41,899 nt of DNA from a bacterium. GTDB lineage: Bacteria; Armatimonadota; Chthonomonadetes; Chthonomonadales; CAJBBX01. The translations under genes and the position numbers were made by a program. Numbering within the stretch: the first letter of the stretch is position 1; each line of letters begins with the position of its first letter. The notes under the pieces are model-generated. The model searched no databases. It saw nothing but the letters and a program-made list of their open reading frames with translations, and was not told the origin of the DNA. Below, piece by piece: positions 1,620-34,534 of the stretch. Location of the stretch: contig VFKD01000033.1 in NCBI GenBank assembly GCA_009885735.1, positions 1 through 41,899 on the forward strand, written 5' to 3'.

Positions 1620-3101
1620 ATGAACGCCACAGCGGTTGGTACTGGCGTCGTGAACTTTTCGCGAGTGTCGCAGAGAGGCAGGAGGGCGCCACTCCCCGGC
1701 GCAGCTGCTAATGGTAAGCAAGCGACACATGCAGGGCTGATCACCGCAGCGGTCGCTAACGATCGCAGAGGTCCGGCACGGAGTCAACAGAACAGCATTT
1801 GCCACTCGAATTCCGGGGCATACAGCCTGTTGCAGACGTTCGCGGGAGCCTGTCCTGAGCGCTGGTCCGCTCACTCTGATCGTGTAGATTCCGCTCATCC
1901 TGAGCGTGGCTCAGCCGTATCGAGCCGCGTCATTCCCGCATGCCGTCAGCGGGAACGAAGGACAGCACCGTGGCAGAGTCGAAGGACCGTATCGTCGAGC
2001 AGTCGAAGGGACCCATCGGGCCTGAGAGTCCGCCGAGTGCTTCCCACGCGAACGGACAACTTGCTCAACGATGACCAGAATCTGGTGCAGATAGTGACGG
2101 GTGACCCCGTGGTCTACCAGCACCTACCTGGAATCTGGGGCAGCCTCTTCTCGGTGCGTTACTCGAACGCGAGCAAGATTGTGGTTCCCGACTTCCAGGG
2201 CCACAGCCGCTTGATGGTGAATAGTTCACAGGCCATCACAGAGACTGCAATCTACGACGCTTGGGGCGCCGAGGTGCTGAACATGACCAGCGGCAAGCTC
2301 GACTTCCGTTCCTGGGGCGCGTTGGGTTACTTCCGGGACAGCCCGACGAGGAGCTACGCGCGAGCACGGGAACTGCGGAGGGACTGGGGACGGTGGTTGA
2401 GCGTGGTCCCGATTGGGTTTGCTGGAGGGGATTGGAATGCCTACCTCTATGTCTCAAACGCGCCGGTTACGGCTTTCGATCCCTCCGGCATGCAGTATTT
2501 GTGCGCACCGGTGCCTCCAAAGCTGTATACGAAAGCTGCAGTCGAAGCTGCGAGCCAAGTAATAGAAGTTAAGGTATGGGATCACGCACATCCCAATGAT
2601 TGCCGATTCTGTAGCTGGGTTGAGCGGACGAAGAAGGTCCGCGTACGGACGAGCCTCGTTACAGAAGTAAAGCGCATGTTCAAGGCGATACACGATGCAC
2701 CAATCGAGAGCCGAGTTCCCATTCACACCTTGGGTCACTTCAATTGGCGCTGCAAACAAAACAACTCGTGCGCAGGGCTGTATGGGTTTAACGAGTGCAT
2801 CCGGATGATGGAACGAGCATATTGGCCCGGCGGCAGCGACGGTGAGAAGAAGTGGCTTAAGTTCTTTAACAAATGCGCATCGCCTCACTCTCAAGCCATG
2901 GCATTTGACATAAATGAGGACTACAACCCGATGACGTCCGGGCCTAATCCGTACCTTGATTGTGGCAGATGGCCTAACGTATGCTGCTATGCAATTCCCG
3001 ACGAAGGAGTGATCGTTAGAGCGTTCGACTGTTGGGTATGGGGCGGACACTGGAGGCAAGATACCAAGGACTACATGCACTTCAGCAAGAACGGCGAGTG
3101 A
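1620..3101 (+). CDS. Orphan Rhs C-terminal core fragment fused to an M15/LAS-type peptidoglycan peptidase toxin domain
   Basis: The ORF is open from 1620 to 3101. Nt 1808-1841 and 2010-~2435 align colinearly (constant offset 6229) with 8203-8232 and 8239-~8664 of the large Rhs gene (DPSGLRVRRVLPTRTDNLLNDDQN...). The core ends at AFDPSGMQ (DPSG at 2478). The ~200-aa tail carries LAS/M15 metallopeptidase motifs SPHSQAMAFD (H-x6-D) and WGGHWRQDTKDYMHF. The first ~65 codons are featureless and ATG 1620 has only a weak SD, so the true start and expression are uncertain. Confidence 0.7.
   Translation: MNATAVGTGVVNFSRVSQRGRRAPLPGAAANGKQATHAGLITAAVANDRRGPARSQQNSICHSNSGAYSLLQTFAGACPERWSAHSDRVDSAHPERGSAVSSRVIPACRQRERRTAPWQSRRTVSSSSRRDPSGLRVRRVLPTRTDNLLNDDQNLVQIVTGDPVVYQHLPGIWGSLFSVRYSNASKIVVPDFQGHSRLMVNSSQAITETAIYDAWGAEVLNMTSGKLDFRSWGALGYFRDSPTRSYARARELRRDWGRWLSVVPIGFAGGDWNAYLYVSNAPVTAFDPSGMQYLCAPVPPKLYTKAAVEAASQVIEVKVWDHAHPNDCRFCSWVERTKKVRVRTSLVTEVKRMFKAIHDAPIESRVPIHTLGHFNWRCKQNNSCAGLYGFNECIRMMERAYWPGGSDGEKKWLKFFNKCASPHSQAMAFDINEDYNPMTSGPNPYLDCGRWPNVCCYAIPDEGVIVRAFDCWVWGGHWRQDTKDYMHFSKNGE
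1842..2009. repeat. Compound copy of the dispersed CCTGAGC/GTCGAAGG repeat family, inserted in-frame in the orphan Rhs ORF
   Basis: 168 nt (56 codons, no stops) replace the 6-nt 'tcttac' (SY) present at the equivalent point of the main Rhs gene (8233-8238). The segment contains ...ttccgctcatcctgagcgtggctcagccgtatcgag... and ...gcagagtcgaaggaccgtatcgtcgagcagtcgaaggg, matching the repeats at 12634, 16431 and 32491. Confidence 0.75.
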
Positions 3102-6800: not shown

Positions 6801-9366
6801 CGATGCGCTGGGTTACCGGACGACCCCGGTCTACGATGCTGCGAGCAGGCAGATAGCCTGGCAGGATGCGCGAGGTTACCTCTCGACGACAGTCTATGAC
6901 GCTGCAGGCAGAGCCTCCGCCGGCGTCAATGCTCTCGGGTTCCGGACCTCCTTCAACTACGATGCCGCCTCGGAACAGGTCTCGGTCCAGGACGCCTTGG
7001 GCTTCCTGCACACAACCTCGTACGACGCAAACGGTCGGACGCTTGCAGCCGTCAACCCGCTTGGGTACCGCACCACGCCGGTCTACGATGCCGCCGGACG
7101 GATGCAGGCGCAGGTCGATGCGAACGGCAACCGCGTCACCACAGTCTACGACGCCCTGAGCAGGGTCCAGTCCCAGCAGGACGCAAGGGGCTACCTGACC
7201 AGCTTTGTCTTCGATGCGGTGGGGAACCAGCTTGCTGTCCAAAACGCGAGGGGCTGCCTCACCTCGTTTGGTTACGACGTGCGCAACATGCAGATAACCG
7301 AGCAGAACGCGCTCGGGACTCTCACCACGACCGTCTACGGGCCAACGGGATTGCGCATTAACCGAGTTGACGGTAACGGCAAGACCACGAGTTACGTCTA
7401 TGATGCAGCAAGTAGAGAGACCCAGGTGCGCTACCATGACGGGTCTCGGGTGACGAACAGCTACGATGCGCTGGGCCGGATTGCCACTCAGGCCTACTCA
7501 CTGGGAGTAGTCACGAACAGCTACAACGCCTTGGGGCAGTTAACGGGAGTCGCCTTTGCCCAGGCCGCGAACCGGTTCACCTACAGCTTCGACGGCGCAG
7601 GCAACCGAGCGGCGATGGTCATCGGCACAGGCGGGATATTCAGCTACAGCTATGACGCGATGAACGCCCTTTCAGCCATTCACAACCCGTACAATGAGCG
7701 AACCACTCTAACCTATGACGCCTTGGGCAGAGAGAGCCAGAGGGTTCTGGGCAACGGGGCGAAGATAACGTTTGCGTTTGATGCCGCCGGAAGAAACACC
7801 CTGCTCGACGCAAGGACCTCTGCAGGCGTGGGACTGGCCATCTACTCCGCGTCATACGACCCAGTCGGCAACCGGCTCGGGGTCCAGGAGCTTGACGGGA
7901 CGCTCGTGACCTACGGTTATGACTCAGGCTACCAGCTCACCAAAGACCAACGCAGCGGCGCGAACGCCTACAACAACAGCTTCACCTTCGACCCGACAGG
8001 CAACCGCCTCACCCGCTCCGCCTCGGGCTCGCTCAGCAACTACACCAGCAACGCGGCGGACCAGCTCACCCTCGTCCAGCCCGCAAGCGGCGCGCCGACG
8101 ACGCTCTCGTACGACCTGAACGGCAACATGACCTTGGAGAAGGCCGGGACGGTCGTTGACACCTACACCTGGGACCCAGAGAACCGGCTAAGCGTATGGA
8201 ACTCCGGGGCGTACAGCCAGTTGCAGACGTTCTCTTACGACCCGAGTGGCCTGAGAGTGCGGCGGGTCCTGCCGACTCGCACCGACAACCTGCTGAACGA
8301 CGACCAGAATGTCGCGCAAGTCGTCACCGGCGACCCGGTGGTCTACCAGCACCTGCCTCGCATTTGGGGCAGCCTCTTCTCGGTGCGATACTCGAACGCA
8401 AGCAAGATTGTCATCCCGGACTTCCAAGGACACAGCCGCCTGATGGTGAACAGTTCGCAGGCGATAACGGAGACGGCTATCTACGATGCGTGGGGCGCCG
8501 AAGTCCTGAACATGACTAGCGGCAAGCTCGACTTCCGTTCCTGGGGCGCGCTGGGTTACTTCCGGGACAGCCCCACGAGGAGCTATGTAAGGGCGCGGGA
8601 GCTGAGGAGGGACTGGGGGCGGTGGTTGAGCGTGGATCCGATTGGGTTCGCGGGTGGGAGTTGGTGTCTATACCAGTATGCATCTGCCTCACCTGTTAAC
8701 GTCTTCGACCCATCGGGCCTACAGGAGTGGGAAGGTAAGTGCTGTAGGTGTTGCTCGAACGATATTCGTGGCGACGCCACGTCGTGTAGCTATTCGTGTA
8801 CAATCAAAGATGCGTGCAAGGATTCCTTTAGCTCGCTTCCAAACAAATGCAACATCGACAGCATGACATTCTGTACGATAATGAATGATCACAAGCAATT
8901 GGGAGATTGCTGCCACGCAGCAAAGTTTGCAGACGTAGACCCTCAGTGCTTGTGTGGAGCCGCCCTCGTAGAACGCTCCTTCCGCACATCCTTGAATGAT
9001 ATCTGTGAGACTCTATGGTTCGAGGATACTGTCGGATGTGTACAGCTAGGCGTGGATACAGCACGAGCCGTATTCAAAGCTGCTAAGCGATGCTTGCCCG
9101 AGTTGCTCGCGGTGCTCGACCCACCAAAATCTGACTCGGAACTATTGAAGAAACTGCGCACTGACTGCAATTGGTCACTCAAAGTCATGGCTGTTTATGC
9201 CGCTGCATGGACAAGTCGTCGCTGCCAACTGAACCCAATTCCGTGTCGTAAGTGGGCGCTAGATATATGGAACCCTGGAGAGGACAATTTCAGAAAGAAC
9301 GTATTTCGGCCGCGAATGGAATGTGTACTAGACAACTTCAAGAACCCTTGCGCTAAGCTCAAATAG
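3808..9366 (+). CDS. Rhs/YD-repeat family polymorphic toxin (1852 aa) with an unassigned Cys-rich C-terminal domain
   Basis: There are dozens of ~21-aa YD repeats (..GYRSTTVYDAAGR..A..DALG..) from about 4300 to 8200. The Rhs-associated core ends at VNVFDPSGLQ (DPSGL at 8707-8721). A ~213-aa tail (8725-9363) with ~21 Cys follows and is visibly more A/T-rich than the body. An AAGGA sequence lies upstream of ATG 3808. Confidence 0.95.
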   Translation: MIRTIDPKQLGIPTLVLPPGFGEAPACRRCVEFSPGPRLDGTLLVDPEIHLPSPGMDVDIAYFYNGNSTYNGPYGYGRTISPNQLAVASGVNAIVTLQRGDGSLVSFQDDGAGTFRAKTPGLLNSLVKDTTNSYWKESTLDGQTLAYPLNTTGMVTSIAYQEDASGNRHSFLYSSGRLETLQDAVGRRVSFSYDGNNLLQSIQDWADRRTTFQYDTVSVSGKPLLATLIGPSGCQTVYGYTTAYLAGLPALTRIVDPNGYETTYMYDQQGRITSRDVAGAGITTYLYQPTTMIHIDAVGQVATLTMDSSFALLQEQSPAGYILTYTRNSQGQVTASQNPLGYACTTSYNANGTTGGAVDALGYMTTVQRDAYSNATTMVFADGTIATMLYGYAGSSFDTTGVKRKVQVAIGPTGTRTTTLYNARGQETSVQDPLGGFVSYSYDSLGDRVSATDPTGRTTSYVHDAAGNVIGIVDMLGYRSSFSYDSHNRRLTETDPLGYTRTVAYDSVGNKVVEIDPLGMRLTWTYNVFDKPVDVVNMLGYRATSVYDSLGRMTAQVDQLGYRTSFLYNSAGLAEAVVNPLGYRSTTVYDAAGRPIAQVDALGNRSTAVYNANNQVIASQNALGYLSTTVFDSLGRVSAQVDALANRTTTVYGQSGQPVAVVNPLGYRSTTVYDNSGRAIARQDSLGYLSTTVYDAAGRPVASVDALNSRWTTLYDEVGRRQAQQDPLGYRSTTVYDAASRAIAGVDALGYRSTSVYDAAGHRIASQDPLGNLATVVYDVLGRAQASIDPLGNRGTALYDAVGRTIASQNPLGYLSSTVYDAAGQAVGSVDALGIRSTTVYDAAGRAEARLDPLGNRYTSVYDAANRTIAGVDALGYRSTTNYDAAGRYQSSIDALGRMSTTLYDAASRMVASQDMLGYRNTTVYDAANRRIAGQDANGNLSTTVYDAAGRALAFQDALGYLSTSVYDAAGRTIASVDALGNRSTTQYDAAGRVQASVDALGYRTTPVYDAASRQIAWQDARGYLSTTVYDAAGRASAGVNALGFRTSFNYDAASEQVSVQDALGFLHTTSYDANGRTLAAVNPLGYRTTPVYDAAGRMQAQVDANGNRVTTVYDALSRVQSQQDARGYLTSFVFDAVGNQLAVQNARGCLTSFGYDVRNMQITEQNALGTLTTTVYGPTGLRINRVDGNGKTTSYVYDAASRETQVRYHDGSRVTNSYDALGRIATQAYSLGVVTNSYNALGQLTGVAFAQAANRFTYSFDGAGNRAAMVIGTGGIFSYSYDAMNALSAIHNPYNERTTLTYDALGRESQRVLGNGAKITFAFDAAGRNTLLDARTSAGVGLAIYSASYDPVGNRLGVQELDGTLVTYGYDSGYQLTKDQRSGANAYNNSFTFDPTGNRLTRSASGSLSNYTSNAADQLTLVQPASGAPTTLSYDLNGNMTLEKAGTVVDTYTWDPENRLSVWNSGAYSQLQTFSYDPSGLRVRRVLPTRTDNLLNDDQNVAQVVTGDPVVYQHLPRIWGSLFSVRYSNASKIVIPDFQGHSRLMVNSSQAITETAIYDAWGAEVLNMTSGKLDFRSWGALGYFRDSPTRSYVRARELRRDWGRWLSVDPIGFAGGSWCLYQYASASPVNVFDPSGLQEWEGKCCRCCSNDIRGDATSCSYSCTIKDACKDSFSSLPNKCNIDSMTFCTIMNDHKQLGDCCHAAKFADVDPQCLCGAALVERSFRTSLNDICETLWFEDTVGCVQLGVDTARAVFKAAKRCLPELLAVLDPPKSDSELLKKLRTDCNWSLKVMAVYAAAWTSRRCQLNPIPCRKWALDIWNPGEDNFRKNVFRPRMECVLDNFKNPCAKLK

Positions 9367-9385
9367 AGCTCGATCGGAATTACCG

Positions 9386-9766
9386 ATGAACCGTGGTCTA
9401 TCAAGATGTAGTTCACTGCTGTTGTTCGCCATCGTTGTAGTCGGTGTTGTCGTTCCTGTATCCTATGTTGTAGCGAGGCAGCGCTCCGGCCTGAACCGTC
9501 AGCTCTGGCAGGTTGCAGGGCTTGGCGATCTCGAGATTGGTAAAACGCTCATTGATAAGGGTGCCAATCCTGATGCACGATATGAGAATGGTAAGACTTT
9601 ACTTATGCTCGCAGCCGAGCGTGATATGGTGGAGGCCGTGCGGGTCTTGAAGCAATTGGGTGCTTCTCTAGACCTTGTCGATAACGACGGGAATACGGTT
9701 GAGTACTACGCCCGCAAGTCACAGAATCCTCGCATTGTTGAAATGCTCTCAGTCGATCACAATTGA
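9386..9766 (+). CDS. Membrane-anchored ankyrin-repeat protein, candidate immunity protein for the Rhs C-terminal toxin
   Basis: It starts 20 nt after the Rhs stop. There is an N-terminal hydrophobic anchor (SSLLLFAIVVVGVVVPVSYVV). Two ankyrin-like repeats follow (GKTLIDKGANPDARYENGKTLLMLAAERDMVEAVRVLKQLGASLDLVDNDGNTVEYYA). It shares the lower-GC composition of the toxin tail. Confidence 0.8.
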   Translation: MNRGLSRCSSLLLFAIVVVGVVVPVSYVVARQRSGLNRQLWQVAGLGDLEIGKTLIDKGANPDARYENGKTLLMLAAERDMVEAVRVLKQLGASLDLVDNDGNTVEYYARKSQNPRIVEMLSVDHN

Positions 9767-9949
9767 CCTAATTGTCGTGATATTGGTCGCTTGTACAAAC
9801 TACCGATTAGCCCAATATGCCACTATTCCGAACGAATTGACACATCAATACATTAGGCGGATCGATGCATGAATGTGAGCACGCTAGTCGTGGAGGTTCG
9901 ACGCTGGGCTGCGGACCTTATTGTATTGGAGTTAACATAGAGAGTATCC

Positions 9950-10651
9950 ATGATCCGCACCATCGACCCTAACCAGTTAGGCATCCCTACCCTGATTCTT
10001 CCTCCAGGGATTGGGGGCACGCCTTCGCGTCCCTCGGAAGCGCCTGCCTGCCGCAGGTGCGTCGAGTTCAGCCCTGGTCCTCGCCTGGACGGCACACTCC
10101 TGGTCGACCCCGAGATCCACCTGCCCTCACCCGGCATGGATGTGGACATCGCCTACTTCTACAACGGCAACTCGACCTACAACGGTCCCTACGGCTACGG
10201 GCGCACCATCTCTCCGAACCTGCTGGCTGTCGCGAGCGGCGTGAACGCCATTGTCACCCTGCAGCGGGGCGACGGCTCCTTGGTGAGCTTCCAGGATGAC
10301 GGGTCTGGCACGTTCGTCGCGAAGACCCCAGGGCTCTTGAACAGCCTGGTGAAGGACACCACCAACAGCTACTGGAAAGAGAGCACGCTCGACGGTCAGA
10401 CACTCGCGTATCCTCTCAATACCAGTGGCATGGTGACGAGCATCGCCTACCAGGAGGACGCTTCCGGCAACCGGCACTCCTTCGTCTACTCCAGCGGGCG
10501 CTTGGAGACCCTGCAGGATGCGGTCGGCGGGCGGGCTTCAGTCGCCATATCGAAGTCGAGCGTGATTCGGTGCCGGTTGCCTTGCGACAAGGTTCTGCTC
10601 GCACGTATCCCGCGCCTCCGCCCCCGTTCGCTTCAGTCTGGCGCCGGTTGA
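9950..10651 (+). pseudogene. Truncated second copy of the Rhs N-terminal module (about the first 195 codons only)
   Basis: 9950-~10537 parallels 3808-~4372 (MIRTIDP.QLGIPTL.LPPG...SSGRLETLQDAVG.R), with a 7-codon insertion near 10011-10031. After ~10537 the similarity stops and the frame runs into an unrelated 38-codon tail. No YD repeats or core follow. Confidence 0.8.
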
Positions 10652-10694: not shown

Positions 10695-12167
<1,473 letters not shown>

Positions 12168-16514: not shown

Positions 16515-19500
16515 TTATCCCTTATCTTTGTCCGGGTCGATGTTTGGAGCTACTCGGGGCTTGGTCTCGTCCGCTTGGCCCTTGTCGTCCGTTCGCTTTG
16601 GAGCCGGCTTGGACTTCTCCTCGCGAGGCGCTTTGGGGTCCTCGGTGGGCACGAGGGATGGGTGTACCTTTTGCAGTTCGGGGATCGCCCTTCGGATTTT
16701 TGCAGATTGCCGGTCAACGAGCGCCTTGCTGTCCCGATCACCCTCCACGACATGCGGAACCAAAAAGATCATCAGTTCGGTCTTATTGGTATTGGTGGTG
16801 GTGGAGCGGAAAAGGCCGCCGATGATGGGAATGTCTCCCAGAAGCGGCACCTTGTTCTGGTTGAGAGTTTTGCTGTCCCGCATCAGGCCGCCAAGGATCA
16901 CTACCTCGCCATCCTTAACGCTGATCGATGTGTCCGTTGACCTTTCGGAGTATCGTGGTGCAAGGATCGACTGCGGCCTTCCCTGAGCGTCCGCACCCGA
17001 GACGAGCGTATCGAAGCCAATCAACTCCGTGGCCACAGCCAGCACGTCGATTGTCACCAGATTGTCGGGTGTGATGCGCGGCGTGACATCGAGTTGGATT
17101 CCGATGGGCAGGTAGTCGTAGCTTAGGCTCTGACCGCCGGTGAACCCTCCGTTTTGCGAGTTGGTGACATACGGCACGTTCGTAGTGATGTCGATCGTGG
17201 CTTGCTGATTGTTTGAGGTGAAGACCTTTGGAGTGGCAAGAATCTTCACCTTGATGTCGTTCGCCAGAGCCTGCACCAAGCCATTGAACTTGCCGTCCGC
17301 AGCCTGAACTCCAAACTGAGCGCCCGGATTGATGGGTGTTCCTATGTTCGCCGACGTACTTCCGCTGGTCCCCAGCGGGAAGCCAAACGAGCCGCCGTGG
17401 GTGATGGCGGAGCCAATAAACTTGCCGATGCCCTTTGCGTCGAACTGCACGCCAAGTTTCTGAGAGGCATCCAGGCTGGCTTCCGCGATGATCACCTCGA
17501 TCATCACCTGCCGAGGCATCTGGTCGAGCTGACTGATTATGTCTCGGATTGCGGCGTTATTCTCTGGGTTCGTGGTGATGATAAGCGCATTATTTGCTGG
17601 GTCCGGCACGACGCCCACATTGTTTCGCAGTTGAAGCAGGCTGCCGAATGCGCCCGTCTGCCCGCGGCCAAATCGGGGCGTCTGCATCTGGCGCTGGCCG
17701 CCGCCGCCGCCTCCAAAGAAGAACTGTCGGCTTGTGTCCGACCCGTCCATCGCGTCAGGAAGAAAGCCACCGTCCGTCATGGTGCCGCGGATGCCGTCCG
17801 CCGGGTCCTGCCCGCTCGTAAACCCAACTGGCGCGATGCGGCCGCCGCCTCTTCCGCCGGTGCCAGCGCCCTGGCGGCGCTGAATCGGCTGTCGCTGCTG
17901 CCGCGGCTGCTGTCCGCCGAAACCGCCAAAGAATCCGCCGAAGCCACCCCCGCCGAACTGATTTTGGTTGCCTCCCGTGCCGAAGGCTTGCCCCAGAATG
18001 TAGGCTACGTCCTGAGCCTGAGCGTTCTTCAGCGGCACAACGAAGGTCGTGCTCTCGGTTTTGACGTCTACGTCAAGTTCCTTCAACAGCTCTTCGATCT
18101 TCTCCATCCAGACTTCGGTGGCTGTAACGATAAGTGAGTTAGTTCTCGGGTTGGCTACGACCTTTGCGAACGGATTTGTGCTCTGGACGGTCTGCTGGCG
18201 CTGCTGCTGCTGCCCACCGCCTCCAAATCCGCCAAACCCGCCTCCTCCGAATCCGCCACCCCCGAATCCTCCGCCTCCGCCACCCCCGAAGACGCGCTGC
18301 TGAAACGATGCGCCTCCGCCGGCGGAGCTCCCGGGCGTGGCGCTCGAGAGCACGGTATTGATCGTGTCTGCGATCTCAATAGCGTCCCCAAAATTGACCT
18401 TGATGTGAACGGTTTCGGTAGCGTTTGTATTCGGCGCATCGAGCTCGCTGATCATCTGCTCCACTCGGCGCATGTTGTCGACGCTGGCGACCACATAGAT
18501 TGAGTTGCTTCGAGTGTCCGCCACGGCGACGACTGCGGCGCGCTCCTGGGCCTGTGGAATTGGCTGGCCGTCTCGGCCCATTTGGGGCTGTGGTTGTCCC
18601 GGCTGTCCACCCTGACCTGCGGGGCTTGGCCGGCCCCGAGAGAGAGTTTGCTTGAACAGATTGTTGATCATTGCGGTCACTTCGGTCGCATCCGCGTTCT
18701 TGAGGGGAAAGCGCCGAGTTTCGTTGCTTCCAGCCGCCTTGTCGAGAAGCTCGACGAGGTCGGAGACTCGCTGAACATTATGTGCAGTGTCCGTGATGAT
18801 GAGTGCGTTTGATCCCGCGCTGCCCACGATGCTGGCGCCCTTGTTGATGAGCGTAGCGAGGTCCTTCGAAAGCGCGCCCGCGTCCACATTCTCTATCGGG
18901 ATCACCTGGGTGATAACCTGGTTTTTGTAGTCGTCGGAGGTCATTGCCGGTTGGCCGGGTATCGGCTTGCCGTCCGGACCGATGGTCGGCGGCCTCTTCA
19001 ACTGGACCGTTGTTTGCACAGCCACGTTCAGCGGAACGATCTTCAGGATCGTGGTCTCGCCGCGCTTTTCGAGCTGGCCGACAAACCCGCGAACCTCCAG
19101 GGTGGACTGCAGAACCTGAAATGCCTGATCGATGGTGAGCTGCTTCGGGCTGATAATGGTCACTGGCCCAGTGAGGCCCGGATCGGGCACGATCTGCCAG
19201 TTCGTCGCCATCGCGAAGAACTTTAGAATGTTGCCGATCTCTGTCCCGCGAAACTCCATCGTGATGAGGCCGCCCGGCGGCACGAGGCCCCCGCGGCCGC
19301 GGCCACCTCCAAACTGAGGCTCAGCCCGTGTTGGCGACACAGGAACGGCAACCGCGCCAGCCGGAAGCTGCAGCGTGAGTGGCTTACCGTCTGGACCCAC
19401 GAGCGGTTTGCCGTCGGGACCCAGCAGAGCCTTAGCGGCATCTACCTTGGGGTCCTGAGCCTGCCCTGCGGGCTTTGCCTGAAGCGGCACCACCTGCAGG

Positions 19501-19697
19501 CCAGTGTTGGCTGGAGCCGGGGAGGCCGTGCCTCTGCCCGGTCGAGCTCGCCGAGACCGGGCTTGCGGTTCCGGCTTCTTTGCCTCGGGCTTGGCGGCCG
19601 GCACAGGCACCTGAGGTGCAGGGGCCTGCGCAAACGACACGAAGGGACACGCAACCGCACACAGCACAGCAATTAGTGGCAATCGATTCGTTCTCAT
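16515..19697 (-). CDS. gspD: Type II secretion / pilus-type secretin (GspD/PilQ family) with long Gly-rich insertions
   Basis: The C-terminal secretin domain is recognisable (NNQQATIDITTNVPYV..., VPLLGDIPIIGGLFRSTTTNTNKTELMIFLVPHVV). ATG 19697 gives the signal peptide MRTNRLPLIAVLCAVACPFVSFAQA. The upstream extension to 19817 overlaps the preceding gene and is discounted. Confidence 0.93.
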   Translation of the reverse strand: MRTNRLPLIAVLCAVACPFVSFAQAPAPQVPVPAAKPEAKKPEPQARSRRARPGRGTASPAPANTGLQVVPLQAKPAGQAQDPKVDAAKALLGPDGKPLVGPDGKPLTLQLPAGAVAVPVSPTRAEPQFGGGRGRGGLVPPGGLITMEFRGTEIGNILKFFAMATNWQIVPDPGLTGPVTIISPKQLTIDQAFQVLQSTLEVRGFVGQLEKRGETTILKIVPLNVAVQTTVQLKRPPTIGPDGKPIPGQPAMTSDDYKNQVITQVIPIENVDAGALSKDLATLINKGASIVGSAGSNALIITDTAHNVQRVSDLVELLDKAAGSNETRRFPLKNADATEVTAMINNLFKQTLSRGRPSPAGQGGQPGQPQPQMGRDGQPIPQAQERAAVVAVADTRSNSIYVVASVDNMRRVEQMISELDAPNTNATETVHIKVNFGDAIEIADTINTVLSSATPGSSAGGGASFQQRVFGGGGGGGFGGGGFGGGGFGGFGGGGQQQQRQQTVQSTNPFAKVVANPRTNSLIVTATEVWMEKIEELLKELDVDVKTESTTFVVPLKNAQAQDVAYILGQAFGTGGNQNQFGGGGFGGFFGGFGGQQPRQQRQPIQRRQGAGTGGRGGGRIAPVGFTSGQDPADGIRGTMTDGGFLPDAMDGSDTSRQFFFGGGGGGQRQMQTPRFGRGQTGAFGSLLQLRNNVGVVPDPANNALIITTNPENNAAIRDIISQLDQMPRQVMIEVIIAEASLDASQKLGVQFDAKGIGKFIGSAITHGGSFGFPLGTSGSTSANIGTPINPGAQFGVQAADGKFNGLVQALANDIKVKILATPKVFTSNNQQATIDITTNVPYVTNSQNGGFTGGQSLSYDYLPIGIQLDVTPRITPDNLVTIDVLAVATELIGFDTLVSGADAQGRPQSILAPRYSERSTDTSISVKDGEVVILGGLMRDSKTLNQNKVPLLGDIPIIGGLFRSTTTNTNKTELMIFLVPHVVEGDRDSKALVDRQSAKIRRAIPELQKVHPSLVPTEDPKAPREEKSKPAPKRTDDKGQADETKPRVAPNIDPDKDKG

Positions 19698-19731
19698 TTT
19701 CAATACCGTCCTTTGCCTGTGGCTGGAAAGT

Positions 19732-20574
19732 CTAGCCACGGTCGCGTCCGCCCCCGCCGCCATCACGTCCACCGCCACCGAATCCGCCTCCACCACCGCG
19801 TCCTCCTCCGCCCTCAAACCGACGGTTCATCATTCGAGCCGCGGCCTGCTCGCGCTCCTGAGGCGACATAGAGTTCATGCGCTGCTGAATGCGGTCACGA
19901 ATGGCCTGCGGCATACCTTCCATGTTTATGCCAGGAATCTGCATCCCACCCGGCATTCCCATCGTCGCGCCGCCTGGCCCGCCCGCTTGCGGACCCCCAG
20001 GGGCTGCAGGTGGAGCAGCCGTTAGGTATGCCGCGCTCTTGTTTAGGGGCGTGAGGGAAAAGTCTTCATTCTTGGCCATCGTGCGTGCTACACCGGCCAC
20101 GTTTACGGTGACGCTTCTGTCTGCAATTGCAGTGATTGATCCGCCCAGAAATGAGTCACCGACTTTAAGGTACTGACCTTCCTTGGTCTTACTGTTTTCC
20201 ACGAGCGCCATTTTTGTATCGCCTGTCGACACAGTTCCGGTGTATGCATAGTCGACAAACGGATCAATCGGAGCGGGCATGGAGGGGGGTTCAGGCATCG
20301 CAACTGTTGGCGGTGCCACTGGGGCCGCCGGAGGTACGGGAACGCCGTGCGAGAACAGGTCTCCTCGAACCGACGACACATAGAATGCAAGCGGCTTGCG
20401 GGCCTGGCCGACGGCCAGGAGGTCGACAACGGGTGCTTCCGACGATCTATCCACGCGCCCGGTTTTGACCGCTGCGGTCGGTCCGCCCTTTGGCGTCTGC
20501 GCCATGACTAGGGCGCCAATTGCCACGGCTCCGGCGCCCACCAGCATCGGCATCATTTTGCTTCGTTTCTTCAT
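19732..20574 (-). CDS. GspC/PilP-like secretin-interacting protein with an RGG/Gly-rich C-terminus
   Basis: N-terminal anchor/signal (MKKRSKMMPMLVGAGAVAIGALVMA), a Pro-rich linker, and the core YTGTVSTGDTKMALVENSKTKEGQYLKVGDSFLGGSITAIADRSVTV resembling the PilP/GspC HR domain. The tail is EGGGGRGGGGGFGGGGRDGGGGGRDRG. AGGAG lies before the ATG. It is a paralog of 29728..30582. Confidence 0.7.
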   Translation of the reverse strand: MKKRSKMMPMLVGAGAVAIGALVMAQTPKGGPTAAVKTGRVDRSSEAPVVDLLAVGQARKPLAFYVSSVRGDLFSHGVPVPPAAPVAPPTVAMPEPPSMPAPIDPFVDYAYTGTVSTGDTKMALVENSKTKEGQYLKVGDSFLGGSITAIADRSVTVNVAGVARTMAKNEDFSLTPLNKSAAYLTAAPPAAPGGPQAGGPGGATMGMPGGMQIPGINMEGMPQAIRDRIQQRMNSMSPQEREQAAARMMNRRFEGGGGRGGGGGFGGGGRDGGGGGRDRG

Positions 20575-20605
20575 GGCGATTATCTCCTTCGTTCTACTGT
20601 CAAAC

Positions 20606-21158
20606 CTAGAGTGTGTCCGGCTTTTGGCCCGCGTCTTGTGTAAATGCAGACACCATCACCTCGATATCGACCTCACGCGACTTCGCATCCGTTGCAGATA
20701 CATTCAAGCGGTCAATTACGAGCTTGCCTGCGGGGTCTTCAATGCTGTATAGAAAGGGGATGCACTTTGGAAACTCAGTCGTCAATCTCACAGTCACCGG
20801 GATTCGGGTGAGTCCTGCAATTCGCTTCGCCCGTATGGGCTTGATCTCACGCAGGTGCAAGCCGGCGTCCTTTGCAAGCTTGGCAAGCTGTATCACCATC
20901 TCGGGCACCACTTCGTCAACCGGTTTCGTTTGCGAGGCCCGTGCGATTCGCTTCTTTAGCTCATCCGATTCCAATATCATATCGCGAGCCTGCTGAACAT
21001 ACTCGCGGCTCTTCTTGGTTGCCTCCGCGGCAGGCACGAGCTTCTTGGCGCTGCCATCCGCAGGGTTTAACACCATCACGACGGCAACCACCACGACCAC
21101 TGTACACAAGAGTATCAGCAGTCGCTCTCTCGGATTTCTGTTGCTGAGGAAGCTCACC
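20606..21158 (-). CDS. PilO/GspM-like inner-membrane assembly platform protein
   Basis: A single TM segment (LLILLCTVVVVVAVVMVL), a coiled segment, then an alpha/beta domain (IPVTVRLTTEFPKCIPFLYSIED). A GTG at 21158 overlaps the upstream TGA (GTGA coupling). The longer start at 21250 overlaps the upstream gene. Confidence 0.6.
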
Positions 21159-22728
21159 GCTGTGCCACCTCGGCGCGTTCCGCCTGTGACGCCACAGCAG
21201 TGGCCCTGCGCCGGTCCGACGGAGGCTTCACGGCGGACTTCAGCTTGCATGCAATCACAAAGTTTATCCCCGCCTCAATCTTTGCAGCCGCCGGTTGCGC
21301 TGTGCCAACTGTCACCGGCGCAGCCATTGCATCGCCGATATAGGTTAGCCGCACATCCGCGTAGTGGCCGCCGGCTCGAAGGGCGCGAACAATCTGCGCC
21401 ACGCCGTCCTGCGTCCTTGCATTTCCGTGGATGGACGTCGTGCCCGCTCGGTCCATGCTCAACTGAGTCAAGCGGACAGGTTCCTTCGCGGGAACGGAGT
21501 CACTGAGTCCCTTCACCAGTTCGAGGCTAGGCGCATTTCGAGCGAGACCGGACTGCAGTGCCTGGTAGGTGCGCGCGAGATCATCGTGCTCTCTCTTTGC
21601 GCGTTCATATCGAACCTTGTTCTTGTCCATCTCGGAATTAGCCATACTGTCTCTCTTACGCTGCTCTTGTCCACTGCTCATGCTTTGCAGCGTGAAAGCT
21701 GCCACAGCCAGCAGCACTGCGGCTCCTACCACGGCGCCAACCATTGACCGAGTGCGCCGGACCGCGGCCGAGCGCCGCTCGAGCCGTTCCGGCGGGATAA
21801 GGTTGACCTGCGGTCCGCTCGCTGTGGCTGCCTGGGCTGCTGCGCCTATGACTGCCGCATACCGTCCTCGGTCGGGCCCGCGCAGCAGCGCGCCAACGAG
21901 TGGCCGAACAGGTGTTTCTACTTGTTGGGACAGCACATTGCAGATGGCGGTAACTTCGGAATCGCCGCCGGTTACGAGAATCTGATCGAGCGGCATCGCG
22001 TGCATCTCGTTTTGGTAGGCAGAGATGGACCGAACAATCTCGATGCTTGCCGCGCGAGCGCCCGCCTCGGTAGAAGATGAGCCGGAGACCTGTGCGGCTC
22101 GCGTAAACGCGACCTTGCCTGCGCGCGATACCGTCACCTCGACTTCAGTCTCTTCCAGCCGTACTATAGCGCACGCCATAACATCCGCTGGAACATGGGC
22201 TGCCAGAGCGAGCGTGGTGATGGTGATGCCGTCCACACGCAGCCGAGCCGCGTCGAAAACCTGCATCAACCCAGAAGCAAGGTCATTGCGAGCCGCCGCA
22301 ATGAGCACGCTCGTGAGTTCATCGCCCTCGTCAGACAGCAGGTAGTGGTCTATAACCACCTGTTCCATGGGGAAAGGGATGTACTGCTGCGCCTCGAAGC
22401 GCACCATGCCCTCAACGTATTCCGGGGCGGCATGCGGCAGCTGGGCCGTCTTGAGGGTGACAAGGCGCCTAGGCAGCAGTCCTATTACGTGCTCAGACTG
22501 GATTCCGGCTGAAGTCATTGCTGCTCGTATCGCTGTACCGATCTCGCGAGCATGCGATCCCACGTCCGGCCAAGCCTGCGCCGAGAAGGGGGCTGAGCCA
22601 ATCTTGACGGATGCACTGGCTCCAGGTCGCTGCATTACCTCCGCCACGCGCACCGCCCCGTATCCTATCTCCACGGCGACGCTGGTCGAGGATGTCGAGC
22701 GTCCTCGCGTGCCGTTCTTAATTGCCAA
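21154..22728 (-). CDS. PilM-PilN fusion (GspL-like actin-fold assembly ATPase-like protein with TM and periplasmic domain)
   Basis: N-terminal PilM-type domain (VAVEIGYGAVRVAEV...), a central TM segment (MVGAVVGAAVLLAVAAFTL), then a PilN-like periplasmic part. A TTG at 22728 is preceded by GGAGG with a 5-nt spacer. The ORF track's TTG at 22749 is an alternative start. Confidence 0.7.
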   Translation of the reverse strand: MAIKNGTRGRSTSSTSVAVEIGYGAVRVAEVMQRPGASASVKIGSAPFSAQAWPDVGSHAREIGTAIRAAMTSAGIQSEHVIGLLPRRLVTLKTAQLPHAAPEYVEGMVRFEAQQYIPFPMEQVVIDHYLLSDEGDELTSVLIAAARNDLASGLMQVFDAARLRVDGITITTLALAAHVPADVMACAIVRLEETEVEVTVSRAGKVAFTRAAQVSGSSSTEAGARAASIEIVRSISAYQNEMHAMPLDQILVTGGDSEVTAICNVLSQQVETPVRPLVGALLRGPDRGRYAAVIGAAAQAATASGPQVNLIPPERLERRSAAVRRTRSMVGAVVGAAVLLAVAAFTLQSMSSGQEQRKRDSMANSEMDKNKVRYERAKREHDDLARTYQALQSGLARNAPSLELVKGLSDSVPAKEPVRLTQLSMDRAGTTSIHGNARTQDGVAQIVRALRAGGHYADVRLTYIGDAMAAPVTVGTAQPAAAKIEAGINFVIACKLKSAVKPPSDRRRATAVASQAERAEVAQR

Positions 22729-24148
22729 ATGTTCCTCCAGAATTGCCAAGCGCCGTAGTTCTATTCCAACTGCTCCAGCCGGGTCTTCGCGCCATCTCTT
22801 TCCACTGAAGCAGCCTTGGCGGCATGGCCGCCGGTGCGCCCGCCGTTTGCGCGGTCGGATCTTCTGGCGGACTCACCTCAACGAGAGCTTGAACCACCAT
22901 CGGCCTGCCCGTGGCCATGCGCACCCATACTCGCACCAGAAACGCGCTGGACTTTGTGCAAACCTGATCCACAAGCGCCTGCAACTGCTGACGGTTCAGA
23001 TCAGTGAGTTGAAACAGATCGTTCATCCCGCTGAAGACGGTTCCGCTCTCCCTGGCCTGAATGACCGCATCGTACGTTGCCTGGTCCACTCCAGTGAGGG
23101 CCGCCAGAACTTCCCTTGGAGCGGTGTTGATGTTCACCACATTTGTGCGAAACTGATCGTTGGTTACGGTGAACTTGTCACCGGACTCCTGCATGATCTG
23201 TCGCGTGAACCCAGTCACATTCAGCAGGTCTGCGATTGACTTTATGGCATTTGTGCCTGTGCCGGCACGAGCTTGAACCAGGCGCTGAGCCAGCTGGCTT
23301 GTAAGTCCCGCCTTGTCCTGGAGGTCCTGCGCACTGGCGGTCAGAATGTTGACCCTCTTTGAGCCATCCGCCTGAACATTGAGCTCTTTTGTATAGGTTG
23401 TAAAGAGTTCGCAGAGAGCGACGGTTTGGCCAGGGCTCTCGGCTTGCTCGACCGGTGCCGGGTCGCCGCCTCCACCTCCCTGCCGCGACCTTGTGGAGCG
23501 CGTGGCGCCTGACCCTCGGGAGCTTGCGCCGGCATCATCCTGTTGCTCTCTCGGACCATACAGAAGCTCGGTGGTCATCCCCTTGATGAGAAGGAGCTCA
23601 TCCACCGTGTCGAGCGGCGCATTCTTCGCACTGTAGGGTACCTGCAGGCCCTGGTAATAGTCCGTCTCGACGCCCTCTACCTGCCTCGCAACGCCCTTTT
23701 CGGAAATTGAGACTGGACCCGTGTCGTCCGAATCTCGCCAGTTGATGATGTTCGCAACGAGCTCGTCGCGCCCATCGACGTTTGGCAGGCTGCGTAGGAT
23801 CGTGTCCGCCGAGGCTGTATTGACGTTGAGCCGAGAGGTCGTGTCAACAACCTCCACTTTGTACCAGCCCTCGCCCAGAGCTGTCCATCCATTCGAGTCT
23901 GTGTCGGGCGGCTGGGTCAATTGGGCTGTGACCGAGCCCCCGTTCGTCTGCGCCTGCAGGGAGGCCATCGCATACTGCACCGCTCCCCTCGCGATAAGGT
24001 AGCGCTGCATGTCCCGATAGTTCGCCTCGGCTGCGCGTGAGTTTCTTCGCGACGACGTCGTAGTGGACACCACGAATGCCGTTAGAATGAGCACCACGAA
24101 AAGGACTGGAATCAGGGCTTGAGCTCGGTTTCGACGGCGCGCCGTCAT
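22718..24148 (-). CDS. gspK: Minor pseudopilin GspK-like
   Basis: Hydrophobic N-terminus without Glu5 (AQALIPVLFVVLILTAFVV). There are repeated helix-hairpin-helix-like LN(V/I)NTA motifs (RLNVNTASADTIL, VNILTASAQDL, VNINTAPREVL) typical of GspK. The ATG overlaps the upstream stop (ATGA). Confidence 0.8.
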   Translation of the reverse strand: MTARRRNRAQALIPVLFVVLILTAFVVSTTTSSRRNSRAAEANYRDMQRYLIARGAVQYAMASLQAQTNGGSVTAQLTQPPDTDSNGWTALGEGWYKVEVVDTTSRLNVNTASADTILRSLPNVDGRDELVANIINWRDSDDTGPVSISEKGVARQVEGVETDYYQGLQVPYSAKNAPLDTVDELLLIKGMTTELLYGPREQQDDAGASSRGSGATRSTRSRQGGGGGDPAPVEQAESPGQTVALCELFTTYTKELNVQADGSKRVNILTASAQDLQDKAGLTSQLAQRLVQARAGTGTNAIKSIADLLNVTGFTRQIMQESGDKFTVTNDQFRTNVVNINTAPREVLAALTGVDQATYDAVIQARESGTVFSGMNDLFQLTDLNRQQLQALVDQVCTKSSAFLVRVWVRMATGRPMVVQALVEVSPPEDPTAQTAGAPAAMPPRLLQWKEMARRPGWSSWNRTTALGNSGGTFGN

Positions 24149-25044
24149 CGACTAAATCCTGGGAGTGATCGCAGGCTGCTTAATGGCCGTCTTGCACCGC
24201 CACCGCCACCACCGGATCCACCGCCAGCACCGGCTCCTCCGCCTCCTCCGCCACTGCCCATCGAACCCGTGGGCTGCCCACCTGTGTTAGGTGTGGGTGG
24301 CGTCTGTCCTGCAGGCTGAAGTTCGGCTGAAGCCATGGCGATGGTCGTCGAGTACGTCTTGACGCGGCCGTCCCTTCCGACCAACTCGAGGTGTATAGAG
24401 ACAGAAGCCGGCAGCTTGGTGTCTCCCTCGGCAGCCTGTTGGCCCGTATCAGCGCCTCCTCCCGCTGCTGCACTAGCTTCGCCGGCAGGTGGTTCTTCGT
24501 TTGTAAACTGCCACTCGTCCTTTGAGCCCTGTTCAGGGTCTGCGAACGACACTTCTATGTTGAGCACTCTGGAACTGATGGGCAGGGCAGCGCCTGGGGA
24601 TGCCTCGAGAGCTTCGGTTGACGGAGCGCTGGTTGACAGTCGAAACAGGGATCGCGAGGCAGCTTCGAAGCGGTAAGCGACCAGCGCGATATCGCTCTGC
24701 GGACCTGCTGTGACTTCAGAATCCGCGTCCTCGTTAAGACTGCTCTCGGCAAGCCTGGGAGCCAGGGTGCTAAACGACAAGAGGTCGCCTGAGCCGGAGT
24801 TCTGTCCCACAAAATACGTAGCGCGATTCGAGCCGGATGCAATGGCGCTCCTCAGGTCGTGCCGAAGTAGATGAATGATTGCAGATGCCTCCTGCATGTC
24901 CTCCGCGGTAGACTCAGCGTTCTCTCTCGCGCGGACCGCGGTTGTGAGCGCAAATGCCGTGGCTGTGGTGATGATCGCAAAGATGATGATAGCGACCAGC
25001 ATCTCGATCAGCGTGTATCCTGGCGACAACGAGGTTCTTCTCAT
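24145..25044 (-). CDS. gspJ: Minor pseudopilin GspJ-like with a poly-Gly C-terminal tract
   Basis: Prepilin-type N-terminus LSPG|YTLIEMLVAIIIFAII. ATG 25044 lies immediately after the upstream stop (25046). The C-terminus is GSMGSGGGGGGAGAGGGSGGGGGGARRP. Confidence 0.65.
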   Translation of the reverse strand: MRRTSLSPGYTLIEMLVAIIIFAIITTATAFALTTAVRARENAESTAEDMQEASAIIHLLRHDLRSAIASGSNRATYFVGQNSGSGDLLSFSTLAPRLAESSLNEDADSEVTAGPQSDIALVAYRFEAASRSLFRLSTSAPSTEALEASPGAALPISSRVLNIEVSFADPEQGSKDEWQFTNEEPPAGEASAAAGGGADTGQQAAEGDTKLPASVSIHLELVGRDGRVKTYSTTIAMASAELQPAGQTPPTPNTGGQPTGSMGSGGGGGGAGAGGGSGGGGGGARRPLSSLRSLPGFSR

Positions 25045-25045
25045 G

Positions 25046-25468
25046 CTATGCGCCTTCTTCTTCCGGCTCAGCCTCATAAGATGTGAACTCTGCAAATCTC
25101 TCTCGGGCGCCGCTTCGCCACTTTATTGTTATGCTGACGCGCAGCAGCCCGTCCACATCGGCGGGAGTTACAGACTGGGTGTAGGAGAATGTCGGATGTT
25201 CCTCTCCAAACTCGCCCTCGTGGTCGCCTGCTGTAAGTTCACTTTGGGGATTCGTGGCTATCTCCCCGAAGCGTTGCTCTGCAAGTAGAGCGGCCGTGCT
25301 GTACTCGTTCGAAATAGCTGTACTGACCTGAGCGGCAGCGAGCGCCATGAGAGTGGCCGTGACGCCCACGAACAGCAGCACCGTGGCCACGATCATCTCG
25401 ATTAGCGTGAAAGCGTGCTCTCGGCGTCGCAATGTCCCACCTCTAGGTGCGTGAAGCGGAGAAATCAA
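25046..25468 (-). CDS. gspI: Minor pseudopilin GspI-like
   Basis: 140 aa with prepilin-type N-terminus REHA|FTLIEMIVATVLLFVGV. There is a 4-nt start/stop overlap with the upstream gene. Confidence 0.7.
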   Translation of the reverse strand: MISPLHAPRGGTLRRREHAFTLIEMIVATVLLFVGVTATLMALAAAQVSTAISNEYSTAALLAEQRFGEIATNPQSELTAGDHEGEFGEEHPTFSYTQSVTPADVDGLLRVSITIKWRSGARERFAEFTSYEAEPEEEGA

Positions 25469-26064
25469 AGGCTGTCTCGAAGGTCCTGGCGCTCGACTCG
25501 TCCCGTTGCAGGAATCACCAGCATCCGAACGCCGTATCCGCTCGCGGCGGCGATCGTGATCTGGGCGCCATTGCTGCTGCCATCCTCGTGAAACACTATT
25601 CGAGGCAGATCGTTTCTGGTCGAGCCGGCTCCACCTTGGCCGCCGCCTGCCTGTAGGTCTGCCTCGGCAACGTCCGGATTAAGAAAGAGGGGCTCCACCG
25701 CCACACCGGCTAGACTCGTGCCTTTCTCCTCTATGGCCACTGGAACGTCCGTATCCCGCACCGCGATGCCGCCCGACGCAATGAATGCGCCTTGCCCTGG
25801 ATCATAGGCTACCGTGCAGTCACTCCCGCTGGAGATGGCCGCGCCTCGTGCGGCCGAAAGAAAACCCAAAACCTGCTGGACTGTCTTGTCGAACTCGGCG
25901 CGTGCAAGAAACCGGGTGTAAGCAGGCACGACCATGCTGGAGAGCACAGCGATGATGATGATGAGCACCGTCATCTCGACAAAGGTGAAGCCGCGCAATC
26001 TATACTTTACGGATGTGATCCGCGGCTGCCTTACCTTCCATCTACTCACCGACCCACGTGTCAC
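25465..26064 (-). CDS. gspH: Minor pseudopilin GspH-like
   Basis: 199 aa with RLRG|FTFVEMTVLIIIIAVLSSMVVPAY and the GspH-like ...FDKTVQQVLGFLSAARGAAI. It starts 2 nt after the gspG stop. Confidence 0.7.
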   Translation of the reverse strand: MTRGSVSRWKVRQPRITSVKYRLRGFTFVEMTVLIIIIAVLSSMVVPAYTRFLARAEFDKTVQQVLGFLSAARGAAISSGSDCTVAYDPGQGAFIASGGIAVRDTDVPVAIEEKGTSLAGVAVEPLFLNPDVAEADLQAGGGQGGAGSTRNDLPRIVFHEDGSSNGAQITIAAASGYGVRMLVIPATGRVERQDLRDSL

Positions 26065-26066
26065 GA

Positions 26067-26504: not shown

Positions 26505-26554
26505 TTCAATCTCTCCTATGCGGCCCATGAGCCTCTGGCCCTGCCGCTGGAACT

Positions 26555-27805: not shown

Positions 27806-27810
27806 GGATA

Positions 27811-29514: not shown

Positions 29515-29727
29515 CTCTTCCTCCACGCAATCCTGCGATTTGTTTGTGACGAGCGACGGTTGCGAGCGTGCGCACTGACATGGCGCTAGCTCAGTGCGAC
29601 CGCGCATGCATCTTCCGGCAGTATGATAGACGGATGTTCGCCGCAAGTGTTACAAGCAAACATGCTGGTTCTGCGGCGAATGATGGCGCAAGGCTCCGCT
29701 TCACACAGGGCGAGAAGCTGCCGAGGG

Positions 29728-34219: not shown

Positions 34220-34534
34220 CAGGTGATTACATATTCTCGACCCAGGATTGCGTGTCGTTCGAGGCACGGCGAGGAGAAAGTCTCGTCCGAAAACCCTCAC
34301 ACTCCATAGACCCGTCTTGCCGCCGGCCGTCCGGCCTGCGGACGTGGAATTATCGCTACTCATCGCTGTATGGTCGACACGAAAAGGCATCCAATAAATA
34401 CGTGCAGTAGGGGCGACCCAGAGGCGTGCCTGACTGAGAACGTACGCATGATCGCACCATGAGCGGTGGAGTACCTTGGGTTCTTACAGGATCATGCCCG
34501 CTCGCTCTCGAACTCCGGTGTGCGGAGGGCGCAA

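Follow-up and report, generated by a model that had tools for sequence, protein, structure and literature searches.

Several components of described toxin systems bear on the locus reported here. In polymorphic toxin systems, lysozyme-like domains are a recognised class of toxin tip and ankyrin-repeat proteins (Imm-ank) a recognised class of immunity protein (PMC3482391). In the toxin Tse3, Glu250 is the catalytic acid and Gln280, which corresponds to Gln82 of the lytic transglycosylase MltE, lines the substrate groove and takes part in substrate binding (PMC3792639). Bd3460 is an exported ankyrin protein that acts as an inhibitor of peptidoglycan endopeptidases (PMC4686830), and some effectors of type VI secretion systems (T6SS) depend on the DsbA of the target cell (PMC5792426). 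We analysed a 41,899-nucleotide stretch of DNA from a bacterium of the Armatimonadota (contig VFKD01000033.1 of assembly GCA_009885735.1, hereafter the window), in which an rhs gene ends in a cysteine-rich tail and is followed by a gene for a small ankyrin-repeat protein. A first-pass annotation had called the tail unassignable and had read the two genes as a toxin/immunity module with a target in the envelope. Our analysis indicates that the tail is probably a disulfide-dependent, extracytoplasmic, lysozyme-like peptidoglycan glycosidase carried as an Rhs toxin, with the exported ankyrin protein as its immunity partner.

The tail is the C-terminal end of a full-length Rhs/YD-repeat protein that was matched by RHS_repeat (PF05593) in 28 stretches in a Pfam scan (E 7e-108) and by TIGR01643 of NCBIfam (E 5e-82). 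The sequence DPSGLQ lies at residues 1634-1639 (nt 8707-8724), and an orphan Rhs fragment upstream was 90% identical to residues 1477-1638 of the main gene through DPSG(M/L)Q, with unrelated tails beyond that point. As identity with the orphan copy ends there, DPSGLQ is a true module junction. GC content was 0.62-0.66 in the Rhs body, dropped to 0.49-0.50 between approximately 8800 and 10000 and rose to 0.57-0.65 beyond, which bears out the earlier impression that the tail and the next gene are more A/T-rich than the Rhs body (about 0.63 to 0.49). The data support a cassette of the Rhs C-terminal toxin type with a lower GC content than the Rhs body.

The tail after DPSGLQ (nt 8725-9363) was 213 amino acids (aa) long and contained exactly 21 Cys (9.9%), matching the first estimate of about 21 in about 213, and all of the strings quoted for it (EWEGKCCRCCSNDIRGDATSCSYSC, DCCHAAKF, QCLCG and NFKNPCAKLK) were confirmed in the translation. 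By comparison, the 1633-aa Rhs body contained six Cys, and the mean over 13 other open reading frames (ORFs) of the window was 0.95%. Relatives of the tail were sought exhaustively with HMMER among 1.84 billion cluster representatives; 11 were returned (E 8e-29 to 6e-4, 32-46% identity), all of which sit after an Rhs core end of the ...DPxG type. Alignment of the 12 members (alignment A1) identified A66, C77, E83, C105, C123, C148, C167 and C200 as invariant, and G104, Q107, A113 and several further Cys were kept in at least 90% of members. Among the 11 homologues 16 of the 21 Cys positions were conserved, and the Cys density of the tail is therefore selected and not due to chance. The window tail keeps all 16 of these Cys together with E83, G104 and Q107, and the relatives P0008 and P0011 are missing several. 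C75 and C174 were both lost in three of the four members without C174, as might be expected for a disulfide pair, and the conservation pattern as a whole would favour disulfides over metal clusters.

Searches with the tail found few other sequences. A word-indexed search of 5.8 billion proteins found nothing with the tail alone and only P0008 with the family profile, a scan of genome contigs with the tail found no relative, and a metagenome scan added only a close copy of P0002. The tail had no significant match in Pfam, NCBIfam or PHROGs, and phmmer of the tail against PDB sequences gave no match. The first-pass annotation had recognised no nuclease, deaminase, ADP-ribosyltransferase, peptidase or pore-forming motif, and this held insofar as no sequence library names the tail; a peptidoglycan glycosidase was not among the options that it considered. 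On the sequence evidence the tail belongs to a rare, unnamed family of putative Rhs toxin modules.

Structure prediction gave the tail an assignment that sequence libraries did not. AlphaFold2 (AF2) on the 12-sequence alignment produced a model with a mean predicted local distance difference test (pLDDT) of 88.4 and a predicted template modelling score (pTM) of 0.86, compared to an unusable model with a pLDDT of 42.6 from the single sequence. In the model, a short beta-hairpin at the N-terminus leads into a domain made up entirely of helices. The N-terminal sub-domain was predicted to contain the hairpin (aa 7-13 and 21-27) and short helices, with conserved Cys at 6, 7, 31, 42 and 50; of its CCxCC cluster only C6 and C7 were conserved. 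The conserved Cys of the helical core were at 62, 63, 75, 77, 105, 123, 148, 167, 174, 200 and 209. When the model was compared to the PDB using Foldseek, the first 18 of 18 matches were Slt, MltE, Tse3 or the endolysin Pae87, and MltC, MltF, g-type lysozyme and a GH23 chitinase were found lower down. The best PDB matches had E 0.05-0.15 and a template modelling score (TM-score) of 0.41-0.46, with probabilities reaching 0.90. In BFVD the named top matches were soluble lytic transglycosylase (SLT)-domain proteins, lytic transglycosylases and endolysins, the best with E 0.01, probability 1.00, TM-score 0.48 and a root-mean-square deviation (rmsd) of 4.5. Each structural match is weak by itself, as none reaches E 1e-3. 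The makeup of the neighbour list of this predicted model is striking, as it is almost entirely lytic transglycosylases and lysozymes, and on this basis we tentatively place the tail in the lysozyme-like superfamily.

The alignments agreed with the fold search in the placement of the candidate catalytic residues. E83 is located near the end of a predicted helix (aa 73-85), as is the case for the lysozyme-like catalytic Glu at a helix C-terminal end. In the G104-C105-V-Q107 segment the Cys was invariant and the Gly and Gln were at least 90% conserved. The family profile searched against PDB sequences retrieved six distinct Tse3 sequences at E 0.35-1.4 (1.3 for the family profile and 0.35 for the trimmed core), with E83 placed on Glu250 and Q107 on Gln280. 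Alignment of the family to the MltE sequence and to an EmtA profile by hhalign gave one register, with E83 on E64 and G-C-V-Q on G-L-M-Q. The MltE sequence was verified against PDB entry 3t36, and the SLT profile was low in diversity (effective number of sequences 1.6) because the MltE search gave only close EmtA orthologues. The trimmed core scored 24.2 in hhalign, compared to a mean of 12.1 (sd 2.2, max 22.6) for 200 column-shuffled controls and 11.6 for the reversed profile. Ten of the 12 members had [WYF]N at the W182-N pair of the possible third motif. With a confident structural model, a coherent set of neighbours, and E83 and the G-x-x-Q segment aligned to catalytic residues, the earlier description of the tail as unassignable was not sustained.

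The gene that follows the tail begins 19 nt past the toxin stop codon and encodes the membrane-anchored ankyrin protein that had been noted beforehand; Ank_2 covered aa 41-122 of its 126 residues (Pfam, E 6e-12). No recorded protein was identical to it in an exact search. Its single, strongly hydrophobic segment at aa 11-29 could serve as a signal anchor or be a long signal peptide. The tail most similar to that of the window (P0001, locus L009, 46% identity) was also followed by a gene for a 133-aa protein with an N-terminal transmembrane (TM) segment and ankyrin repeats, 31% identical to the ankyrin protein of the window. Because the same pairing recurs at L009, the window ORF is a plausible cognate immunity gene. 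The predicted topology of the ankyrin protein was less clear: charges flanking the hydrophobic segment were ambiguous in the window protein (+2 on the N-side and +3 on the C-side), whereas those of the L009 homologue (+4 and 0) would clearly place the N-terminus inside and the C-terminus outside.

To compare partner genes across the family, the DNA around all 11 relatives was recovered and the downstream ORF was translated where it was called or readable, using the sister contigs L019 and L021 for L018 and L020. A small ORF was present downstream of the tail in all relatives with downstream DNA. Ten of 11 partner ORFs opened with a hydrophobic anchor or signal, mostly with a positive N-flank, and one further partner was multi-TM. 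Beyond the ankyrin pair, the partners were unrelated small proteins forming at least two recognisable families plus singletons. Judged from these translations, the exported immunity candidates of this one toxin family come from at least four unrelated families, ankyrin among them. As the partners are uniformly exported, the toxin probably acts, and puts the producer at risk, outside the cytoplasm, and the envelope or periplasm that had been proposed as the target remains the best reading.

Two of the partner families had shared motifs. The ORFs at L010 1200-1988, L011 5080-5646 and L023 690-1481 belong to one immunity-candidate family with the motif FTPVF...RDINN(D/N)GNLDI, which resembles a calcium-binding or FG-GAP-like loop. 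A second (L013, L016, L017 and L022) had a common C-terminal ...RP..W.DW motif. Neither family had a Pfam match on record.

We propose the following mechanism. The tail would be enclosed by the Rhs shell and freed by autoproteolysis after Leu1638 (between DPSGL and Q), as expected from characterised Rhs/TcC proteins. Folding would take place under oxidising conditions, in the periplasm of the target or outside the cell, where up to eight conserved disulfides could form, and the freed tail would take up a lysozyme-like fold of the soluble lytic transglycosylase, goose-lysozyme or GH23 type. Glu83 would serve as the general acid in cutting the backbone of N-acetylmuramic acid (MurNAc) and N-acetylglucosamine (GlcNAc) of peptidoglycan, with the G-C-x-Q107 segment taking part in substrate binding. 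The reaction could be hydrolysis or lytic transglycosylation, and the sequence cannot decide between them. In the producer, the ankyrin protein would be held in the cytoplasmic membrane by its N-terminal helix with the repeats facing outward, where it could bind and occlude the enzyme.

A more specific version of this mechanism would make the payload redox-gated. About eight disulfides would be needed for the active lysozyme-like fold, so that the tail would stay inert in the producer cytoplasm and within the Rhs cocoon until the oxidative-folding machinery of the victim, or the extracellular milieu, armed it. Delivery would not depend on a T6SS, and the producers would be Armatimonadota-like bacteria in which other Rhs tails are likewise Cys-rich and have exported immunity partners. 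We regard this version as possible but doubtful. If true, these Rhs systems would form a class found across the lineage and dedicated to targets outside the cytoplasm.

Several observations weigh against the assignment of the tail as a lysozyme-like peptidoglycan glycosidase. None of the 12 family members matched a lysozyme or SLT family in Pfam, NCBIfam or PHROGs, even at E 5-10. There was no structural match at E 1e-3 in PDB or BFVD, with TM-scores of 0.41-0.48 and rmsd of 4.5-10 Å, the AF2 model was built on only 12 sequences, and the hhalign probability was low (2-7%). The tail Glu lacks the Ser that directly follows it in the SLT 'ES' motif. A prenyltransferase (3ipi, E 0.006 over 35 aa) outranked Tse3 in the profile search against the PDB; we judged this to be a chance match, as it was short and had no support from the fold search. 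The ambiguous charges of the window ankyrin protein also count here. Finally, a secretion apparatus for the Rhs protein was not found in the window or at the related rhs loci L004 and L006: residues 1-420 of the Rhs protein had no PAAR, signal peptide, TcdB/TcaC or other trafficking domain in Pfam or NCBIfam, the window contained no VgrG, PAAR or T6SS genes, and the neighbourhoods of L004 and L006 had no conserved partner or delivery gene. In favour of the assignment, the adjacent orphan cassette carries a VanY-like peptidoglycan peptidase domain, is also Cys-rich and has a signal-bearing ORF next to it.

The same sub-significant fold and profile matches, and the lack of any curated family that matches the tail, could be explained if the tail were a Cys-rich helical toxin of another activity (membrane-active, receptor-binding or metal-dependent) and its likeness to lysozymes due to chance similarity in how the helices pack. 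Under this explanation the CCxCC cluster near the N-terminus could be a metal site, but only two of its four Cys are conserved. In addition, the structural neighbours were specific, being nearly all lytic transglycosylases or lysozymes in two independent libraries, and three alignment methods agreed in placing the only invariant acidic residue on the known catalytic Glu. We therefore consider a different activity unlikely. The fold could also be right and the substrate different, with a glycosidase acting on chitin (of fungi or invertebrates) or on an exopolysaccharide and the Rhs protein being anti-eukaryotic or matrix-degrading. The structural neighbours did include a GH23 chitinase and 'chitinolytic' lysozyme-like proteins of phages, and no antibacterial delivery system was visible in the window. 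However, every relative with downstream DNA had a tightly linked membrane-anchored partner, which fits self-protection of the envelope, and the D-Ala-D-Ala peptidase domain of the neighbouring cassette acts on peptidoglycan, making a substrate other than peptidoglycan distinctly improbable.

Two further explanations were given still less weight. The tail and ankyrin pair could be an inactive, decayed cassette in a graveyard of rhs fragments, as there are truncated rhs remnants on either side of the gene and conserved Cys have been lost in two of the relatives. Both the 5.6-kb rhs ORF and the ankyrin ORF are intact, however, and the window copy has retained the conserved Cys and the candidate catalytic residues in full, so decay is very unlikely. 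The all-alpha Lipocone toxins include RHS-type toxin tips with extracytoplasmic action and membrane-linked immunity (PMC12419801), and a member of this superfamily (Min-Wnt/TelC-like) would act outside the cytoplasm on lipid II or on other lipid-linked head groups. There was no Wnt, TelC, PAP2 or VanZ-like structure in the first 50 Foldseek matches of either library (PDB and BFVD), and prokaryotic Lipocones are without Cys-rich elaborations (PMC12419801). The Lipocone assignment was rejected for want of supporting structural matches and we give it hardly any credence. Together these comparisons leave the extracytoplasmic lysozyme-like peptidoglycan glycosidase as our favoured reading of the tail.

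The positions of the features discussed are collected in the table below.

Table. Positions of the rhs gene, its tail and partner, and neighbouring rhs remnants in the window.
Feature	Position (nt)	Strand	Evidence
Full-length Rhs/YD-repeat protein, 1852 aa	3808..9366	+	ORF; Pfam and NCBIfam matches
RHS repeat-associated core, aa 1559-1638, ending in DPSGL	8482..8721	+	TIGR03696, E 4e-11; identity to orphan copy ends here
N-terminal Cys-rich sub-domain, tail aa 1-57	8725..8895	+	Alignment A1; AF2 model
Predicted lysozyme-like/SLT-like catalytic core, all-helical, tail aa 58-213	8896..9363	+	Alignment, AF2, Foldseek, hhalign
Codon of tail Glu83, candidate catalytic acid, invariant in 12/12 members	8971..8973	+	Aligned to Tse3 Glu250 and MltE Glu64
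G104-C105-V-Q107, putative counterpart of SLT GLMQ	9034..9045	+	Aligned to MltE G79-L-M-Q82 and Tse3 G277-L-G-Q280
W182-N-P-G185, possible counterpart of AYNxG	9268..9279	+	Suggested by order and spacing only
Ankyrin-repeat protein, 126 aa, immunity candidate	9386..9766	+	Ank_2, E 6e-12; same architecture at closest homologue
N-terminal hydrophobic segment of ankyrin protein, aa 11-29, LLLFAIVVVGVVVPVSYVV	9416..9472	+	Mean Kyte-Doolittle 2.85
Orphan Rhs core end with a different Cys-rich tail carrying Peptidase_M15_4 (VanY-like)	2010..3101	+	90% identical to main-gene aa 1477-1638
Truncated N-terminal remnant of paralogous rhs	9950..10651	+	87% aa identity over ~200 aa

The surroundings of the gene show how the cassette is delimited. 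The orphan core end lies within an ORF at 1620-3101, in which homology to the main rhs gene starts at 2010, and its tail contained 11 Cys in 201 aa. The ORF that follows (region to 3646) had a signal-like N-terminus (RRIVICSRQLRLVVVLLLVTRLVVPAHA). Judged by its peptidase domain, the orphan cassette is also a putative peptidoglycan-targeting one. Its location upstream, and not downstream, of the full-length rhs gene is unusual. On the other side, similarity of the second remnant to rhs starts exactly at its ATG, and the remnant forms the 3' edge of the low-GC cassette and directly precedes atpD (10767-12167). A C-terminal remnant upstream together with an N-terminal remnant downstream indicates a rearranged tandem rhs cluster, and the low-GC region from 8725 to about 9950 is therefore one exchangeable cassette. 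The nearest relatives of the Rhs N-terminus were in Chthonomonadales and Abditibacterium metagenome-assembled genomes (MAGs), which points to a source akin to the Armatimonadota.

Other loci of the tail family differed in gene organisation. At L002 (856-6011), L011 (286-5089) and L013 (1-5086), and also at L016, L018 and L020, the Rhs protein was encoded by two adjacent ORFs 0-15 nt apart, a large repeat-body ORF and a 340-380-aa ORF (starting MPVTNY... or MPATTATY...) with the core end and toxin. This arrangement recalls the TcB/TcC split and could alternatively reflect frameshifts or arrays of orphan cassettes. L002 had two more orphan core-end and tail cassettes (6832-10233) after the SLT-like cassette, with 15 Cys in 209 aa and 19 Cys in 212 aa, and the small ORF after each of them encodes a hydrophobic segment at the N-terminus. 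Because these extra cassettes share both features, Cys-rich tails and exported partners seem to be lineage-wide for these Rhs proteins.

Elsewhere in the window, a complete-looking type II secretion/pseudopilus cluster was found on the minus strand at 16515-29646, with a 1100-aa secretin (four Secretin_N stretches), a GspM/PilO-like protein, a PilM-PilN fusion, GspK, a GspJ-like protein, GspH, GspG, GspF and GspE. It is the only secretion system in the window, and no link was found between it and the Rhs protein. Two ORFs with weak PIN-domain matches (37834-38358 and 39922-40491) lie on either side of a thiolase gene within a fatty-acid beta-oxidation neighbourhood that includes a 3-hydroxyacyl-CoA dehydrogenase/enoyl-CoA hydratase (34466-36910) and an AMP-binding enzyme (40653-41894).

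The general mechanism proposed here is not new, because peptidoglycan-degrading toxins with periplasmic immunity are well established. What is new is, in the first place, a sequence family that is invisible to Pfam, NCBIfam and PHROGs and has about 12 representatives among 1.8 billion clusters; a new Pfam toxin family could well be built on it. Also new are the dense, conserved Cys framework in a payload that travels unfolded in the Rhs shell, which raises the question of where and how the tail folds, and the use of several unrelated exported immunity candidates by one toxin family. The fourth new point is that the tail occurs in Rhs proteins that are akin to those of Armatimonadota MAGs and have no recognisable delivery domain.

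Among known systems, the ankyrin partner has a parallel in Bdellovibrio bacteriovorus, where the exported ankyrin protein Bd3460 is encoded beside a peptidoglycan hydrolase and shields the bacterium's own wall sterically (PMC4686830). The Bdellovibrio enzymes (Bd3459/Bd0816) are DD-endopeptidases and not glycosidases, and they are not found in a polymorphic-toxin context. Six repeats and a cleaved signal peptide make up Bd3460, compared with approximately two to three repeats on a hydrophobic anchor in the window protein. With respect to Imm-ank, the linkage of an ankyrin gene to a toxin tip was observed in the window and repeated at L009, and other relatives use unrelated partners. The Imm-ank proteins catalogued so far are partners of the Tox-AHH nuclease, which is cytoplasmic, unlike the extracytoplasmic reading suggested here (Zhang et al. 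2012, PMC3482391). The lysozyme-like tip listed in the same catalogue is the PF01832 glucosaminidase (Tox-Glucosaminidase) of Firmicutes, and the tail family and its ankyrin pairing are absent from it (PMC3482391).

The top structural neighbours of the tail were the family-1 lytic transglycosylases (E. coli MltE/EmtA, Slt70 and MltC; PF01464). The tail shares one order of elements with them, a Glu at a helix end, a G-x-x-Q segment and a later aromatic-N-x-G. It differs in having E-x-S in place of E-S, in its many putative disulfides and extra N-terminal Cys-rich hairpin domain, and in being a predicted toxin and not a housekeeping enzyme. The Pfam SLT motifs are present in the tail only in altered form (E-x-S, G-C-x-Q and W-N-P-G), and none of the 12 members had a hit to any Pfam model, SLT included, at E up to 10, which leaves the family below the gathering threshold.

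The paradigm of an interbacterial toxin with an SLT-like fold is Tse3 (Tge1), which with Tsi3 belongs to the H1-T6SS of Pseudomonas aeruginosa and cleaves the glycan strands of peptidoglycan once in the periplasm. Both are very divergent from housekeeping enzymes. The A-E-Q-R of Tse3 corresponds to A/T-E-[RHQ]-[SR] in the tail family, followed about 25 residues on by G-x-G-Q and G-C-x-Q, respectively, and Tse3 is neutralised by an exported immunity protein just as the tail has an exported candidate. Tse3, at approximately 400 aa, stands alone and is exported by the T6SS; Ca2+ sites lie close to its active site, and its immunity protein is a beta-sandwich. The tail, by contrast, is 213 aa long, is encapsulated by Rhs and has 16 conserved Cys and an ankyrin partner, replaced by unrelated partners in its relatives. 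Sequence similarity between the two was not significant (E 0.35). Nor did the locus resemble the T6SS Tge class in its genes, as there were no T6SS genes in the window and the ankyrin candidate was not Tsi3-like. The tail family is thus set apart from these systems by its Cys framework, its N-terminal Cys-rich hairpin domain, Rhs encapsulation, promiscuous exported partners and rarity. Although it falls outside both the Pfam SLT family and the Tge class, the tail family most likely works like the SLT-fold toxins.

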